Positions 1 through 9,000 of a stretch of DNA of 20,255 bases are shown here, piece by piece. How positions within the stretch are numbered: position 1 is the stretch's first letter; each line of letters starts with the position of its first letter. Source of the stretch: Vulcanimicrobiota bacterium (GTDB lineage: Bacteria > Vulcanimicrobiota > Vulcanimicrobiia > Vulcanimicrobiales > Vulcanimicrobiaceae); the NCBI GenBank assembly GCA_003135555.1, contig PLCF01000026.1:196-20450 (forward strand), read 5' to 3'. Made by a program: the position numbers.

Positions 1-3000
1 CCCGCCGACGATCCAGCTGCCGGTGCAGTGCGTGCTTGTCCACCTGCCGGAACCGGTTGTCTTACAGTCGTCGACCGTTGCGACCGCTCGGGGACCGGTC
101 TGGCGCTGCACGAGGAGAAAGATGCCGGACCCGATCATGACCGCCGCGATGATAGCCGCGACGATCGCAGCGAAAATCATGGCGCCCTTCGTAGGCGTGC
201 GTCCCCTTCCGATGATCACGGCGTACTCACCATCATGCTCACCATCATGCTCACCATCCTTGTGGCTCTGCGGCGCATCGACCCGGACTTCAGCTTGATG
301 CTGTGGAGCGGCGCGATGCTCTTCGCGTTGCCTGCGGTGCGCAATTCACTACCCGATAGCCCGCCGCTCGGCATTCAGGCTGACTTTTACATCTTCATGT
401 GGGCAGAATCTGTCGTTGCTGTCTCGATGGTTGTCCTAACGTCGTATTTGATCGCGAAGCGTGCCCGCGGCGGACCGTGAGCGGTAGCCCCGATCCGGCG
501 CCCGTCAGTCTCCGTGGGCGCCTGCCCAGGGCTGGGGCGCGATGGCGATGGCGTCGTTGGCGTAGCTGCGGATGTACGCAAACGAGACAAACCCGTAGCC
601 GTCGCTCCCGAAGCCGGTCCCCATGCTGTTGCGGAAGATAAAGTAGCCGCCGCCGGGGAACGCGCGCGACTCGCGGAAGCCCACGAGGTCGATTGAATGA
701 CCGTCGAACATCGGCGGGTTGGAGCCCGTGTTGGCGCTGCGCGGATAGTCCTTGAGCAGCGGAACGCCGGCAACGGTCACCGTGGGAACGTTGTTGTGCC
801 ACAAGGTGTCATTGAGCCACCAGATTCCGGTGGCCACCGGACGCCCCGAGCGCAAGATTGTGAGCGTGCGTTGAAGTTCCGCGCCGGTCATCCCCGTGGT
901 GTTGTCCCAGGTTTTGACGACCGTGAACGGATACTTCACCGGGAACATCGCCTGAGCTGCCGCGATCGTGGCCTTGTTCGGCGCCGCGGGATGGTTGGGA
1001 TCGTACGCCGCGCGGTAGGGCATCTCGCGCAGGGTGGCGATGCCCCACGTGCGATAGCCGCTCATGAACTTGGTGAAGAACCCACCGTCGGCGTCTTCAC
1101 CCGTCGCGCGGTTGCCGGCCCAGTTGAGATACTCTTCCGACAGGTTGCGGCCCCCGCGCGCGAGCGGCGTAGCGGCCTTCTGATATTCGATCAAAAACGT
1201 CGTTGCAAAAACGGTGCAGGTGCCGCGATTGCCCTGATCGCGCACGTGCAACCGGCGCTGCCTGATCGTGGGACGCAGGTCGACCTCCGGTGCGAGACCG
1301 GAAACGAAGTGCTCCACGAAGCGAACGTGGATCGGGACCGCGGGGCGCCATGCCGGCACGGCAGCCGCCGCAACGCCGGTCATCAGGAACGCCGACGCGA
1401 GGAACGAAGCAGGAAGCTTGTACATGAGCATGCCTCCGGATCGATGCGCGAGCTTGCGCCTTTTCTGGTCCGGGCCGAGGCGGGCCTTCGAGCGCCGGCT
1501 GCGCGTGACGGCGGCCCATGCTTTCCAATAGGCACAAGGGCCTCATTCGCGGCCTGATCTATCCGGTTCAGTTCGACCCCGACCCCGTCGACGGAGTCGA
1601 CCGAGTGCTCGAACTGGTCGTCTACCGGCGTGCGCTCGACGCGGGTCCCGACGAGTATTCGGCGGCCATTGCGGCCGCGCTGCAAAGCGACGAGCAGCTA
1701 GCGCCGCTGATACCTCAACCGCATTCCGAACCGGTTATCAGGGCTTATCTCACTGCGCTCCAGCAACGTTTGGCCTGATGCCCGTTCAGGGCCGCGCCCC
1801 GAGCGATTTCAGCGCCGCGTTCGCGGTGGCGCGCTGCCCGTAGCCGGGACAGTCGTGCGCCGCCAAACGGTAGAACGGTAGCGCCGTGTCCGGCGAACCC
1901 TGCACCGCATAGAATTCGCCGACGTAGAAGTTCGCCTCGCACAGCCGGCCCAGGTTTTTGGCCGGGTCGGGGTCGTGCGCCGCGGCAATGGTCGCGGCCG
2001 GCGCGCTCTGCCCGAGGAACAGCCGCACGATCGGCGCCGGCCACGCGCTCATGTCGAGCTGCTTGGCCGCATCCGAGAGCCGGCTTGGCGCGTGGCTGCG
2101 GCGACCCGTCACCTCCACGAGCAGCGCCGCGTACGCATCTTTGGGCGCGAGCGTGGCGGCTTTCTCGAAATCGGCGCGGGCCTGATCGAGCGGGCCGCCG
2201 CCGTACAGGTTCGCGATGCCGCGCATCACGTATGCGGCTTCCTGGTCGGGCGCGCCGTGGATCGCCGTGCCCAGGGTGGCGACGGCGCGTTCGCGATCGC
2301 CCGCGGCGAAGTAGTCGGAGCCCAGCGCGAGTTGGATGTAGGGCACGTTCGGATTGACGCGCACTGCCTGCTCGTAGTCCGCGATCGCGCGGTCGTGCTC
2401 GCCGCGCACGTCCTCGATGTACGCGCGCCCGGACAGCGCGAGCATGGCGTTGGGATCCAGGCGCAGCGCCTCGTTGTAGTCGGCGTACGCCCGGTCGTAG
2501 TCGAGCTTGAAACCGTACGCGATGGCCCGGTCCGTCCGGTACTTGGCGATGGCCGGCGCCAGGCGAATGGCCTCGCCGTAGTCCGCAACCGCACGATCGT
2601 AGTCGGCCTTGAGCTGGTACGCAAAGCCGCGCTGATCGTACGCGAAGGCGAAGGCCGGGTCGAGCCGGATCGCCTCGCTCAAGTCCGCGATCGCGCGGTC
2701 GTTATCGCCCTTGCGCTGGTACGCCATGCCGCGGCCCAGCCACGCCGCCTTGGAGGCGGGCTTGAGGCGCAGCGTTTCGTCGTAGTCCGCGATCGCGTGA
2801 GCGAAATCGCCCTTTGCGCGGTACGCGTTGCCGCGATTGTTATAGGCGGCGGCCAACTGCGGATTGAGCCGTATCGCCTCGTTTTCGTCGGCGATTTCCT
2901 TGTCGTAGTCGCGTTTGGTCTCGTATGCGAGGCCGCGGTTGTTGTAGGCCTCCGCATACCCGGGCTGCAGCCGGATCGCTTCCGTGTATTCGACGATCGC

Positions 3001-6000: not shown

Positions 6001-9000
6001 GATCGACGACGGAAACGTTGCCGGCGAATGCCGGCGCATGCAGGTTGCTCAAGGATTGGAACACCGACCAATCCCACTCGTGCCACACCGGCGCCAGCAC
6101 GAACGTCGCCACCCCGAGAAGCGCGACGTAGACCGCGATCAGGACCGCCGTCGCCCGCAGCCAGGGCTGATTGGTCACGTTCCGCGACCGATCACGCGCA
6201 GCGGGCGGTCGCGGCGCGCCAGCAGCCATTCGGCCTGCTCGACGAGCGCCTCGCGTCCGACCTCGCGCAGGACCTGGGCCTGACCCGTGGACTCGCCGCC
6301 GGCGCGGTGATGCAGCTGATGCAGCGCGCGATCGAAGACGCTGAACATGCGGTCGTAGCGCTTTGCGTTCGCCGAATACCCTCGTTTGTCGGCGTAGCTC
6401 GCGAACAGCGCAGCCGCCGCCCCGACGAGCGCCGCGAACGACGCGGCCCAATGCTGCGCGCTCACCGCCATCGCGCCGAAGAGCGAGCTGAACGGCGGCA
6501 GCAGCAGGATCGCGACGACGACGATCGATCCCACGCCGATCCATTGCGAAACCTTGCCGATCCGCTGGTAGACTTGGGCGCGACGTTGATCGCGCGTCGC
6601 GGCGCGATGGTAGTACCGCCACTGCTCGCGCACCCAGTCCAAGGCGAGGCGCTCGTTGCGCGCCTGCGGTGTAAGCGATTCCACGAACGCCGCCGAGCGA
6701 AGCACCATCCGGATCCATTGCAGCTCGCTCTGCTGCATCCGCATATAGTACGGATCGACGAACTCCTCGCCGCCGACCGCGTTCCAAGCGATCTGGACGC
6801 GCAACCCCTCGCTGACCGCGCGGTAGTCTTGATAGCGGTTTTCAAGGTCGGCGCCGCGCACGATACGATACGCGATGAACGCCGCGACCAGCGTGGCGAT
6901 CTTGACTGGCTCGGGCCCCAACGTGTCGCCGAATCCGAGCTGCGCAGCGATCGCGATCAGGGCGAGGGCGTAAAGCACCCGGAGCTGTGAGAGCGCACGT
7001 CCCTGCAGCCGGTTCGCCGTTCGGTCGGTTCGCGCCATCAATCCAGGCAGCCCGGCGGCTGCGGGCGACTCGGCCGTCGCGGCGAGATCCGCATTGAAGC
7101 GATCGAGCAGCCCGATCGCCGCGTCGAAGCTCGCTCGCGCTTTCCGGTCGCCGGAGAAACGCCGCGGATAGCGGCGCTGGACCGAGAACGTTGCGTCCGG
7201 CCGCGGCTTGCCTAGGCGCGACGTGACGATTTGGAAGACCGGCGTCGGATCGGGCTGATGACGCTCGTCGATGCTCGAGGCCCACCGCGTCGACGCAAGT
7301 CCCGTCTCGCGGAGCTGCACGATGCCGGCGGTCGCCCCAGGCGCCGGCGACGTCGCGCCGTCCCAAAGCGCGATGAGGATGTGGCTGTGGAATGCGAGGT
7401 ACCAGCCCGTCGCGGCCTCGCCCCCGGTATCCGCCTCCGCGTGCGCGACGACCGAGACGTGCGAGCAGCGAGCCAAGACTGCGCGCAGACGCGCCGCATC
7501 GGCCGGCGTGAGGTCGCGTTCGTACGTCTCGGGCGACATCGCCATGCACCCGATGACGGCGAGTCCCGCGTCGAGCGCGACCTCGGCCGACAGCAGCCCG
7601 GCGCCGCGGCGCAGCAACGAAAGCACGACGAGGCGCGTGTGCGGCACGCTCCGCGCGACGTCGTCGAGCAACGCGCGCAAGGCAGCGCGCATCGCAGGCT
7701 CGTCGGCTGGTACGATCTCGCGATGGCCGGTGATCCCCACCACGAGCGCAGCGCCATCCGATGAAAACGCCGGCGGTGCCTGCTCCACGCCTCCTGCGTA
7801 CGCAGGCGCAGTCCCCCGCTCCTCCGCACGCACGGTCTGCACGCCGTTGCCGGACCCGGTCAGGTTTCGATCGGCGTATCGGTGGCCTTTCCCCACTCCG
7901 CCCACGAGCCGTAGTAGACGCGAACGTCGCGGTATCCGAGGAGATACGTCAACGCGAACCACGCCTGGCTGGCCCGATTGCCGATCGTGCAATAGGTGAC
8001 GACCTCGGATTGCGCCGTGACGCCGCGATCTTGCAAGGTCTGCCGCATCTCGTCGGCGTTCCTGAAACTACCGTCATCGGTGCGCAGCAGCTCGATCGGG
8101 ACGTGCACGGCGCCCGGTATGTGCCCCGCGCGTCCGGCCCCTTCGGTCGCGCCGGACGGCCAGAACCGTTCGCCGTCGTACTCGGCCTGCGAGCGCGTAT
8201 CGAGGATCAATGGAGTCGGCCGGCCGATCGTCTCCCGTACGCTCTCCTTCGACGAGAACAACGCGTTCGGCGCGGCGAGCGCGTAGTGCGAGGGCGCGAA
8301 CGCCGGAACATCCGTGGACCACGTTCGGCCCGCGGCGATCCACTGGTCGCGCGAGCCGTCCATCAAGCGCACCCGATCGTGTCCGTGCGCCTTGAGCAGC
8401 CAGAAGCCGAGGTGAGCGCCGTAGCCGTAACAGACGACCGTCGTATCGGGAGTCACTCCGGATTTGCGCAGGACGTCTTGCAACTCGGCGGCGTTTACCG
8501 GGCGGTAGTCGGGGTGGCGCAAATCGGTGTACGCATTCCAGAGCGCGGCCCCGGGAATGTGCCCGGCGTTGTACGCCGATGCGCTGACATCGATCTCCAC
8601 GATCCGCACGGACGGATCGTCGATGCGCGCCGCGATCCAGGCTGCGTCGACGCGTCCATCCGGGGAAGTATCAGCAGATTCCACGGCTACCTCCTGGTCC
8701 CCGAGCCTTTGGACGGCGGCTTGCGTTTTCCCATCCGCGAGCGAGCGGGCGCACGTTCCAACCCACCGCCTGGTATGCCGAGGACATCGCGTTCTTCGCG
8801 GAATACAACCGAATTCGCGAGGAGTGGTTCGGCCCTCACGGACCCGGCGATGCACAACTCGCCGAATACTTCGGACAGCTGGAGAGCACGTGAGCAAGCC
8901 GAGAGTCCTCTACGTATTGGTCCAATACCCTCAGCTGTCCGAGACGTACATCCGTGCGGAGATCGAGGCGATCCGCGCCGACTTCGACGTTGAGATCATC

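Follow-up and report, generated by a model that had tools for sequence, protein, structure and literature searches.

In the genome of a peat-soil bacterium of the Vulcanimicrobiota, we describe a module of three abutting or overlapping genes that we read, at a probability of roughly 55%, as a Thoeris-like TIR signalling module embedded in the membrane, whose trigger comes from outside the cytoplasm. The window (the whole 20,255-nt stretch of DNA analysed) encodes a CHASE2-TIR membrane protein (g00293), an exported FecR-like/TPR protein (g00292) and a SLOG-SLATT membrane protein (g00294), all on the minus strand, as is every feature of theirs given below. What is new is the predicted extracytoplasmic CHASE2/FecR sensor on a TIR domain, an arrangement that our full-text literature searches did not find described.

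Organization of the locus

The genes run from g00294 (6175–7788; 537 aa by the collection's gene call) through g00293 (4442–6178; 578 aa, GTG start) to g00292 (1786–4440; 884 aa), the stop of g00294 overlapping the start of g00293 by 4 nt (GTGA) and the stop of g00293 lying 1 nt from the start of g00292. The overlap agrees with the preliminary description of this DNA, which had placed the g00294 start at 7905; that position clashes with the rhodanese gene upstream, which has its stop at 7860. A GTG at 7788 is the start in the collection's gene call, and the true start lies somewhere in 7788–7842. As previously stated, the locus does not sit in a recognisable defence island: PADLOC returned a single match among the 9 flanking ORFs scanned, a partial one to MkoA from a helicase 3.9 kb away.

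A TIR domain behind a CHASE2 sensor

The CHASE2 domain of g00293 spans residues 20–326 (5201–6121; Pfam E = 3.8e-9, 36.9 bits against a cut-off of 26.3) and sits, by Kyte-Doolittle hydropathy, between membrane helix 1 (residues 5–33) and helix 2 (314–343), a position from which it is predicted to be extracytoplasmic. Three helices (314–343, 361–380 and 383–401; 4976–5239) separate it from the cytoplasmic TIR domain, and the stretch IQPQVSLV (383–390) contains an invariant Q386 and three nearly invariant residues in the alignment of relatives. The TIR domain covers residues ~426–565 (4484–4903; Pfam TIR_2 at 428–532, E = 6.2e-14), and its fold is confirmed in the AF2 model (pLDDT 86.6) by VIA-align and Foldseek, the latter matching BtpA, PdTIR and AbTir. 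Domain limits, helices and the number of homologue clusters (125 at E ≤ 1e-5) reproduce those reported before, with E values close to the earlier ones.

A glutamate had also been noted at the position used by NADase TIRs, and our alignment bears this out: the candidate catalytic residue E505 (codon 4664–4666) aligns to the Glu of the BtpA motif WPAREL, given as catalytic E217 in a passage of PMC7188309. The surrounding motif reads Y-C-R-F-E where others have W-x-x-x-E, and E505 is invariant in 50/50 aligned relatives, a sample drawn from the 125 homologues found. Such conservation speaks for an enzyme and against a scaffold. There is also a weak likeness to the NCBIfam model of Thoeris type III ThcB4 (E = 9.5e-6, far below the cut-off).

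The TIR domains of animal Toll-like receptors recruit adaptors. The best structural matches of the g00293 TIR by VIA-align are scaffold-type domains (Hydra TRR-2 TIR, Z = 16.2; TIRAP, 16.0; MyD88, 15.6), ahead of SARM1 (12.9) and ThsB (12.0), and both g00293 and g00294 are membrane-anchored with cytoplasmic domains, as would suit a non-enzymatic TIR that makes no messenger but, once clustered, recruits a partner by contact, be it the g00294 SLOG domain (whose fold class is TIR-related) or something else. We consider such an adaptor highly improbable, given that an invariant catalytic glutamate would be superfluous in a pure scaffold and that the bacterial systems treated in passages of a Thoeris preprint use their TIR as an enzyme (bioRxiv 10.64898/2025.12.03.692087).

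The neighbouring g00292 begins with a signal-peptide-like hydrophobic segment by hydropathy (residues 5–23; ~4366–4440), followed by a FecR-like N-terminal region (residues 26–232; 3745–4365) in which Pfam FecR matches residues 85–161 (E = 3e-5, 24.8 bits against a cut-off of 24). The remainder (1786–3744) consists of ~12 Pfam TPR repeats and a C-terminal region kept in the closest relatives, and this part is similar to periplasmic TPR proteins, NlpI and PilW among them. FecR at the same residues with about 11 TPRs is what the earlier Pfam reading gave.

A SLOG fold and two SLATT-like modules in g00294

The earlier account of g00294 as a SLATT-like membrane protein was right about the membrane part but missed an N-terminal SLOG domain (YpsA/DprA/LOG-like Rossmannoid; residues 13–202 of the 537-aa form, 7183–7752). 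The AF2 model (pLDDT 90.6, pTM 0.91) strongly supports this fold: VIA-align matches it to YpsA (2nx2) with Z = 16.3, rmsd 2.8 and 159 aligned residues, to DprA (Z = 11.7), ShosA (11.6) and LOG (9.6), and also to the Moco carrier protein, and Foldseek again finds YpsA (E = 2.8e-4). The N-terminal regions of TRPM2/TRPM4 match at Z = 8.2 (rmsd 3.6, 156 aligned), a likeness confined to the SLOG fold, with whole-chain TRPM matches at rmsd ~30. ThsA does not appear among the listed structural matches, and a likeness specific to the ThsA SLOG is unsupported. The domain carries a Gly-rich loop (GITGHR) and LWDG after GAG, but has that GAG where the family has GxD/E and PGATA where it has GGTAD, so its pocket may bind something else, or nothing. 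The altered GxD/E motif occurs in 9/58 aligned members, all from the window's own subclade; the other 49/58 have D or E.

Downstream of the SLOG fold, which sequence and model predict to be cytoplasmic, lie two putative SLATT-like membrane modules. Module 1 is a two-helix unit (residues 246–348; 6745–7053) with sub-cut-off matches to DUF4231 and SLATT_3 (E = 8.8e-4, 20 bits against 26.3); module 2 (residues 386–521; 6226–6633) has hydrophobic segments at 410–444 and 448–466 and a SLATT_1 match below the cut-off. That the SLATT assignment of g00294 stays below the Pfam cut was already recognised; for g00294 itself the same applies to NCBIfam, and PADLOC gave no match. A domain scan of its family, covering 58 of 111 homologues, found at E ≤ 0.01 DUF4231 in 45, SLATT_3 in 22, SLATT_1 in 15, DNA_processg_A in 13 and YAcAr in 9. 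The ESM Atlas feature neighbours reported for g00294 were recovered at a similarity of 0.96, with SLATT/DUF4231 shares of 10–43%.

Conservation of the gene neighbourhood

Searches with a profile of the g00292 FecR-like region showed a FecR-like gene directly adjacent to, and on the same strand as, CHASE2-TIR in 61/78 genome loci, and this pair is the core that is conserved in at least six phyla. The three-gene set put forward previously is not the conserved unit: in only 17/78 loci is there a relative of g00294 at 7 kb or less from CHASE2-TIR; SLOG-SLATT is missing from the flanks of the other 61, so it is not obligatory and represents a lineage-specific addition. Four gene orders besides the window's own were counted. 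In 3 loci SLOG-SLATT lies upstream and a TPR-S gene separates it from CHASE2-TIR; in 2 it lies downstream of the FecR gene; in 11 it abuts CHASE2-TIR divergently and the flanks hold no TPR-S gene; and in 1, the alphaproteobacterial MAG locus L029, it is directly downstream of CHASE2-TIR. The neighbouring copies belong to three divergent subfamilies, 27–77% identical to g00294. Genomes without a neighbouring SLOG-SLATT gene had a copy elsewhere in 5/5 cases checked. Patatin or TIR-like/TPR-S genes are companions in other loci.

This pattern bears on whether the two membrane proteins are functionally linked at all. The g00294 SLATT matches below cut-offs, its altered SLOG motif and the origin of most linked loci from one phylum would fit a g00294 of other function, brought next to g00293 by descent or because unrelated genes for membrane and conflict functions cluster; adjacency among the Eremiobacterota loci does partly reflect shared ancestry, and the correlation of identities (Spearman 0.64, n = 16) fits co-evolution and vertical descent alike. 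We nevertheless hold the absence of a functional link to be highly improbable, as the linkage persists through the four rearrangements, the three effector subfamilies and one cross-phylum case, the window genes overlap or abut, and the YpsA match gives g00294 a strong fold assignment.

The output of the TIR domain is a separate question. SARM1 and the TIR effectors of other defence systems act by simple NAD+ depletion, and g00293 could likewise be a terminal effector that answers an outside cue by depleting NAD+, leaving SLOG-SLATT to respond to a TIR-like/TPR-S protein or other input. Consistent with this are the conserved core itself, which comprises FecR-like and CHASE2-TIR only, and several Bacteroidota loci (among them L031 and L032) flanked by housekeeping polA and asparaginase genes with no effector in view. 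A possible real partner for SLOG-SLATT is found in the genome of the window, where the g00294 paralogue on contig C52 adjoins, as first reported, a TPR-S protein that weakly matches a TIR effector, and in three relatives (L001–L003), where a ~1.4-kb gap suspected of holding another gene indeed contains a TIR-like/TPR-S (MAP3K_TRAF_bd) gene. The 11 divergent loci with TPR-S-free flanks, the direct adjacency in L029 and the 4-nt overlap in the window argue the other way, and we judge the terminal-effector reading rather unlikely. The SLOG fold in the effector, together with the several gene orders in which it is found by CHASE2-TIR, strengthens the chain that we favour, in which an outside cue leads to a TIR product and this product to the membrane effector.

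Relation to Thoeris systems and CHASE2 receptors

TIR-to-SLATT signalling is already known: the relevant passages of a 2025 preprint describe type VII Thoeris, in which the ThsB TIR acts with the SLATT effector ThsH through a cADPR signal (bioRxiv 10.64898/2025.12.03.692087), and a section of PMC9503650 had predicted SLATT as a permeability effector regulated by ADPr derivatives. The window resembles type VII, as far as those passages describe it, in pairing a TIR gene bearing the catalytic Glu with a SLATT-type membrane effector, and the expected logic (TIR, ADPR-derived messenger, membrane-breaching effector) would be the same. In contrast to that system, the g00293 TIR is the tail of a four-helix CHASE2 membrane protein with an exported FecR/TPR partner; the terms "chase" and "periplasm" are absent from those passages of the preprint's main text. 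Moreover, g00294 has a SLOG domain added at its N-terminus as well as two SLATT-like modules, whereas ThsH is described there as having pockets between SLATT protomers, and the window system is not known to have a phage-defence phenotype. In type I Thoeris the SLOG fold is what reads the cADPR isomers made by the TIR; according to the same passages, the ThsA SLOG domain reads 3'cADPR. An effector SLOG domain as presumed reader of the TIR product is common to g00294 and to types I and III (ThsA SIR2-SLOG; ThsD), but the g00294 output would be a SLATT-like membrane module instead of SIR2, and its SLOG resembles that of YpsA and lacks, in the subclade of the window, the GxD/E motif.

The comparison class for g00293 is the CHASE2 receptors (histidine kinases, cyclases, GGDEF proteins, Ser/Thr kinases and metacaspase-CHASE2), which share its order of one helix, CHASE2, three helices and a cytoplasmic output domain but not its TIR output. 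An exported FecR-domain protein encoded alongside also has a counterpart, the LysM-FecR protein beside a CHASE2 histidine kinase in a Burkholderia operon (described in part of PMC5192318), although g00292 carries TPRs, not LysM. Fusion to a death-type output has precedent in metacaspase-CHASE2 (a passage of PMC3501461) and EACC2-caspase (PMC8195603).

With animal Toll-like receptors, g00293 shares an ectodomain, a membrane span, a cytosolic TIR and a repeat-protein partner outside; it has no LRRs, four helices rather than one, and a TIR with a conserved catalytic Glu that is likely an enzyme and not a scaffold, so "Toll-like receptor" holds for it only as an analogy. TRPM2 is an ADPR-gated channel with an N-terminal SLOG-type domain, and it combines, like g00294, a SLOG fold with membrane helices. 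Both likenesses are analogies and not family membership.

Proposed mechanism

TIR NADases are generally activated by bringing TIR domains together. In the module that we propose, the FecR-like/TPR protein and CHASE2 would jointly sense an envelope or extracellular cue, and ligand-driven dimerisation or clustering would join the TIR domains of g00293, which may then cleave NAD+ to an ADP-ribose-derived messenger, cADPR-type or ADPR itself. Its SLOG fold makes g00294 a plausible ligand sensor for the step from TIR to pore: the SLOG domain would bind the messenger and the SLATT modules would permeabilise or depolarise the membrane, with growth arrest or death as the outcome. Lineages with FecR-like and CHASE2-TIR only probably rely for their output either on the TIR itself, which would deplete NAD+, or on an effector whose gene lies elsewhere. 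Candidate roles are an anti-phage, anti-competitor or envelope-damage response.

The anatomy behind the original outside-in reading (CHASE2 outside, TIR inside, a SLATT-like neighbour and an exported FecR/TPR protein) stands, but the TIR-to-SLATT step is not new, the three genes are not the conserved unit and the Toll-like receptor is an analogy. The locus suggests that TIR signalling in bacteria can have its starting point outside the cell.

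Organization of the module

Three minus-strand ORFs occupy positions 1786..7788, or beyond, of the window, where G+C content is high (about 0.63-0.73). The stop codon of g00294, which encodes a SLATT-like membrane protein, overlaps the start of g00293 by 4 nt as GTGA; g00293 (4442..6178, minus strand) encodes a 578-aa CHASE2-TIR protein, and g00292 (1786..4440, minus strand), for an 884-aa FecR-like/TPR protein, starts 1 nt past the g00293 stop. Start candidates for g00294 are a GTG at 7788 (the collection's gene call, 537 aa) and in-frame GTGs at 7833 and 7842; the start at 7905 proposed in a preliminary description would make the gene run into an upstream rhodanese gene whose stop lies at 7860. 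A Shine-Dalgarno case for the 7788 start was dropped because just 1 nt separates the AGGAGG from the GTG. Between the 3′ end of the rhodanese gene (two domains; 7860..8897, minus strand) and the 7788 start there are 71 nt with no terminator-like site, and the rhodanese gene is not conserved beside the module in relatives. Scanning 1300-9200 returned five terminator-like sites against 4.1 expected and no promoter-like sites.

Just downstream of g00292 lie a DUF4436 protein fragment (1..480, plus strand) and an ORF that weakly matches the papain family (Peptidase_C1; 505..1431, minus strand). In the closest relatives (L001-L003), the g00292 homologue is followed downstream by a patatin gene on the other strand. 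The assembly with the window, a MAG of an uncultured peat bacterium, comprises 98 contigs totalling 3.57 Mb and is about 84% complete; the names of homologues indicate Eremiobacterota (WPS-2, Vulcanimicrobiota). DNA of the window recurs in peat metagenome runs, and no RNA run was listed as containing it.

The CHASE2-TIR protein

Pfam searches matched g00293 to CHASE2 at residues 20-326 (E 3.8e-9, 36.9 bits against a cut-off of 26.3, profile positions 3-252 of 257) and to TIR_2 at residues 428-532 (E 6.2e-14), and hydropathy placed helices at 5-33, 314-343, 361-380 and 383-401, with the TIR after the last. CHASE2 receptors customarily consist of one helix, the sensor domain and three helices. 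The same arrangement is found in g00293, which is a CHASE2 receptor by both its above-cut-off match and its helix plan; the anatomy first described, with CHASE2 between helices 1 and 2 and the TIR last, agrees with Pfam and hydropathy. Basic stretches follow helix 2 (LRRLQLRALR, in the loop) and helix 4 (GERGRE), which by the positive-inside rule fits a probable topology with CHASE2 outside and the TIR in the cytoplasm.

An AlphaFold2 model of g00293, based on an alignment of 50 of 125 homologues, reached a pLDDT of 86.6. By VIA-align, its residues ~423-566 matched the TIRs of Hydra TRR-2 (Z 16.2), TIRAP (16.0) and MyD88 (15.6), and further those of RPP1 (14.7), SARM1 (12.9) and ThsB (12.0); Foldseek also matched BtpA, PdTIR and AbTir. 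The wide VIA-align search used the whole model, and because TIR-domain matches (residues 422-566) took up its list, it scarcely probed the CHASE2 fold. E505 aligns with the glutamate of 'WPAREL' in BtpA/TcpB, described as the BtpA catalytic residue E217 in a WxxxE motif (PMC7188309). It is invariant in 50/50 aligned sequences, as are D427, F429, S431, Y432, Y492, Y496, F497 and C502, and the alignment to E217 supports the TIR glutamate to which attention had been drawn earlier. By Pfam match, fold and the E505 alignment, g00293 is a TIR protein that retains the catalytic glutamate, as expected of a Thoeris-type system.

The FecR-like partner and the conserved core

The g00292 protein has one N-terminal hydrophobic, signal-peptide-like segment, a FecR-like region (Pfam FecR, residues 85-161, E 3e-5, 24.8 bits and just over the cut-off of 24) and about 12 TPRs; by NCBIfam, the TPR part is nearest to periplasmic TPR proteins such as NlpI and PilW, with all matches below cut-offs. 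FecR-type anti-sigma regulators have a cytoplasmic anti-sigma domain and one membrane helix, and are found beside an ECF sigma factor and a TonB-dependent receptor. The g00292 protein departs from this plan: the signal-like segment is its only hydrophobic one and is followed by the FecR-like region and the TPRs, and no sigma factor or receptor gene occurs among the window ORFs scanned. Complex prediction from alignments of the CHASE2 ectodomain (32-314) and the FecR-like region (26-232) gave a score of 0.00, which counts neither for nor against contact between them. Elsewhere, a CHASE2 histidine kinase with an exported LysM-FecR protein encoded beside it has been described (PMC5192318).

Profile searches for CHASE2-TIR in species-representative genomes gave at least 221 confirmed places, from which 78 loci were kept, a few tail loci among them matching the TIR part only. 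They come from Eremiobacterota, Verrucomicrobiota, Alpha- and Betaproteobacteria, Bacteroidota, Chlorobium and Gemmatimonadales, and cultured carriers include Kriegella aquimaris DSM 19886, Chlorobium limicola, Gelidibacter algens ACAM 536, Winogradskyella alexanderae and Ideonella alba. With a profile of the FecR-like region, a FecR-like gene was found directly adjacent and on the same strand in 61/78 loci, downstream in 22 (Eremiobacterota) and upstream in 39 (other phyla), and nearby but not adjacent in three more; among the 14 loci lacking one, at least six stop at a contig boundary on the side where the gene would lie, and five are TIR-only matches. The FecR-like/CHASE2-TIR pair is the conserved core, present in at least six phyla. 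The TPR part of the partner varies, with Sel1 repeats in one locus (L028) and short forms of ~390 aa in Bacteroidota. The pairing of FecR with CHASE2 is not universal, since a second CHASE2 protein of the same genome (on contig C17) has no FecR-like gene of the g00292 subfamily within about 6 kb.

A SLOG-SLATT protein upstream

SLOG and SLATT were reportedly defined by Burroughs et al. in NAR in 2015. The preliminary description overlooked a SLOG domain that makes up the N-terminal third of g00294; the consensus of the g00294 family reads VGVTGHRD ... LAxGADxLAAE ... LWDG ... GGTA. An AlphaFold2 model (alignment of 58 of 111 homologues; pLDDT 90.6, pTM 0.91) shows the Rossmannoid fold of the SLOG superfamily: by VIA-align, residues 13-202 matched B. 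subtilis YpsA with Z 16.3 (rmsd 2.8, 159 aligned), followed by DprA (Z 11.7), ShosA of Shosta (11.6), a Moco carrier protein (11.3), LOG enzymes (9.6) and PpnN, and the N-terminal region of TRPM2 gave Z 8.2 (rmsd 3.6, 156 aligned). Foldseek confirmed the fold with probability 1.00. No SLOG Pfam family matched g00294 at E<=1, and relatives gave weak SLOG-type matches at E<=0.01 (DNA_processg_A in 13/58, YAcAr in 9/58).

Past the SLOG domain, the model and hydropathy indicate a helical part with two pairs of hydrophobic helices. As had been cautioned earlier, g00294 itself falls below the SLATT cut-offs of Pfam (24.7-26.3), with SLATT_3 at 20 bits, DUF4231 at 17 and SLATT_1 at 16.5, and NCBIfam SLATT_3 scored 20.2 against a cut-off of 45. 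Its homologues, 58 of which were scanned at E<=0.01, matched DUF4231 (45/58, best 4.5e-8), SLATT_3 (22/58) and SLATT_1 (15/58), and precomputed Pfam matches on relatives also support family-level SLATT homology; with the paired hydrophobic helices, both the homology and the two-helix module architecture of SLATT effectors are present. From the SLOG fold, the paired helices and the SLATT matches of homologues, we conclude that g00294 is a SLOG domain joined to two SLATT-like modules. Searches with g00294 returned no match among PDB chain sequences (E<=10) or in PADLOC. Longer, fused forms (941-2685 aa) were absent at E<=1e-5, itself a weak indication, and Pfam searches of 10 longer or partial-coverage relatives gave a single, sub-cut-off DUF4231 match.

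The SLOG pocket is altered in the window protein. GxD/E is described as the substrate-binding motif of YpsA (G53/E55), with its importance shown (PMC6459960); the corresponding residues of g00294 are G62-A63-G64, which departs from the YpsA-like clade. Across the 58 aligned members, the motif position is D or E in 49 and G in nine, all nine in the window's subclade, which combines three pocket changes: GAD to GAG, GGTA to GATA and loss of the next acidic residue, leaving PGATA in place of GGTA(D/E). Because the GAG/PGATA changes are common to sequences only 61-77% identical to g00294, the altered motif appears to be a stable variant and not the product of decay, and the joint changes may signify a different ligand. 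In Thoeris terms, g00294 is an adjacent effector with a ligand-sensing domain, having a SLOG fold with an altered pocket motif and a gene that overlaps that of the TIR protein.

Linkage of SLOG-SLATT to CHASE2-TIR

A profile of g00294 relatives placed SLOG-SLATT near CHASE2-TIR in 17/78 loci, 16 from Eremiobacterota and one from an alphaproteobacterial MAG (L029). It lies upstream on the same strand with one gene between in L001-L003, downstream of the FecR gene in L004 and L027, divergent and abutting CHASE2-TIR in 11 loci, and directly downstream of it in L029; the window's order, directly upstream with the 4-nt overlap, is a fifth arrangement. Adjacent copies are 27-77% identical to g00294 and their CHASE2-TIR partners 31-82% identical; the association is retained by distinct effector subfamilies. 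The SLOG-SLATT gene beside CHASE2-TIR is split across two frames in two loci (L021, 5160..6919, minus strand; L012, 4986..7043, minus strand); a frameshift or a faulty assembly might explain this. All five checked genomes with a locus missing SLOG-SLATT carry a copy elsewhere. In the absence of SLOG-SLATT, the TIR may act via NAD+ depletion or a distant effector.

The gap of ~1.4 kb that had been suspected of hiding a gene in relatives does hold one in L001-L003, with matches to MAP3K_TRAF_bd (E 3.7e-43) and TPR-S (E 9.5e-22) and an N-terminal region that matches the PADLOC 'Effector TIR' model (E 1.4e-7). The same pairing recurs on contig C52 of the window's genome, where a TIR-like/TPR-S gene is followed by a SLOG-SLATT paralogue, its SLOG motifs seemingly degenerate by eye, and then by patatin. 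Such pairings would suit the main rival explanation, that signalling ends with the TIR of the CHASE2 protein as effector and that SLOG-SLATT takes its input from the TIR-like/TPR-S protein. TPR-S genes occur in 8/78 loci. The SLOG-SLATT gene directly adjoins CHASE2-TIR in the window, in L029 and in the divergent loci, which counts against the rival; we regard it as unlikely.

In the C52 locus (L087; module 6319..10938, minus strand), patatin is followed by a small ORF at 6319..6879 with a match to the SLOG portion of the g00294 profile (E 1.7e-5), and a FecR/TPR protein lies beyond it at 1411..3969.

Defence context

PADLOC on nine flanking ORFs of the window returned a single partial MkoA-like helicase match, 3.9 kb off, in keeping with the earlier remark that the module is not in a recognisable defence island. 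That protein (11657..15079, minus strand, 1140 aa) has RNase_H_2 and the SF1 helicase domains AAA_11, AAA_12 and AAA_30, with weak Cas4/PD-(D/E)XK matches at its N-terminus and the MkoA match (PADLOC, E 6.8e-46) over the helicase part only.

The loci of relatives do include patatin (12/78 loci), TPR-S, CHAT, SIR2-TIR, nSTAND and caspase genes. In Chlorobium limicola (L036, 816..11123), CHASE2-TIR has FecR/TPR genes on both sides; genes for a ThsB-like TIR protein (581 aa) and a RyR-domain protein (665 aa) come before it and one for a PGDYG protein comes after, with every gene on the same strand. Kriegella aquimaris DSM 19886 (L042, 2765..14299) carries, in this order, patatin, pYEATS-TIR, a second TIR, FecR/TPR, CHASE2-TIR and an 1816-aa CHAT/TPR-S/DUF7379 protein. 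CHASE2-TIR is followed by SIR2-TIR and nSTAND1 in L048 and by a caspase gene in L049; in L031 and L032, polA and an asparaginase gene flank the locus and no effector is visible.

Discussion

SLATT has been predicted to be a permeability effector regulated by ADPr derivatives (PMC9503650; PMC7159879), and caspase-type domains are described as fused to CHASE2 (PMC3501461; PMC8195603). A recent preprint (bioRxiv 10.64898/2025.12.03.692087) describes a TIR next to SLATT as the validated type VII Thoeris, with canonical cADPR as its signal, 3′cADPR read by the SLOG domain of ThsA in type I, and several TIRs coupled to a SLOG effector in type III. In that account phage infection activates the Thoeris TIR systems; that account mentions no membrane or periplasmic sensor, 'chase' and 'periplasm' are absent from the main text, and the supplements may list such genes. 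Neither a CHASE2-TIR protein nor any membrane- or periplasm-sensing TIR in Thoeris turned up in our full-text literature searches. Some family members already bear the label 'TIR domain/CHASE2 domain' in source databases, so the architecture is annotated, yet no printed discussion lay within reach of the searches. We assign the module to the Thoeris-like TIR signalling modules, a known kind; its proposed trigger outside the cytoplasm would be new. What was first observed is real and more coherent than originally described.

We propose that the CHASE2 ectodomain, together with the exported FecR/TPR protein, would sense a cue outside the cytoplasm, that the TIR would be switched on by clustering and make an NAD-derived messenger, and that the SLOG domain would read this messenger, whereupon the SLATT modules would breach or depolarise the membrane. 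For the window module, we put the probability of this whole chain at roughly 0.55. The likeness to a 'Toll-like receptor' drawn in the preliminary description stands for the plan of an outside sensor and an inside TIR, which is all that the two have in common. Animal Toll-like receptors have an LRR ectodomain, a single helix and an adaptor-recruiting scaffold TIR, whereas g00293 has CHASE2, four helices and a conserved catalytic glutamate, and the comparison is an analogy only.

More tentatively, the module might be a bacterial pattern-recognition receptor, in which a surface attack (phage adsorption, envelope damage or a competitor's weapon, for instance) is sensed before cytoplasmic entry and the TIR's NAD-derived messenger gates the SLOG-SLATT channel. 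If so, it would correspond, in a prokaryote, to a TLR-type receptor coupled with an ADPR-gated, TRPM2-like channel. SLOG-SLATT is in itself a simple candidate for a membrane pore gated by an ADPR derivative. With at least 221 confirmed loci and cultured strains among its carriers, the FecR/CHASE2-TIR family is common enough for study. If the proposal holds, TIR joins the output domains of CHASE2 receptors, and with a TIR wired to an extracytoplasmic sensor, NAD-derived second-messenger signalling could start outside the bacterial cell.
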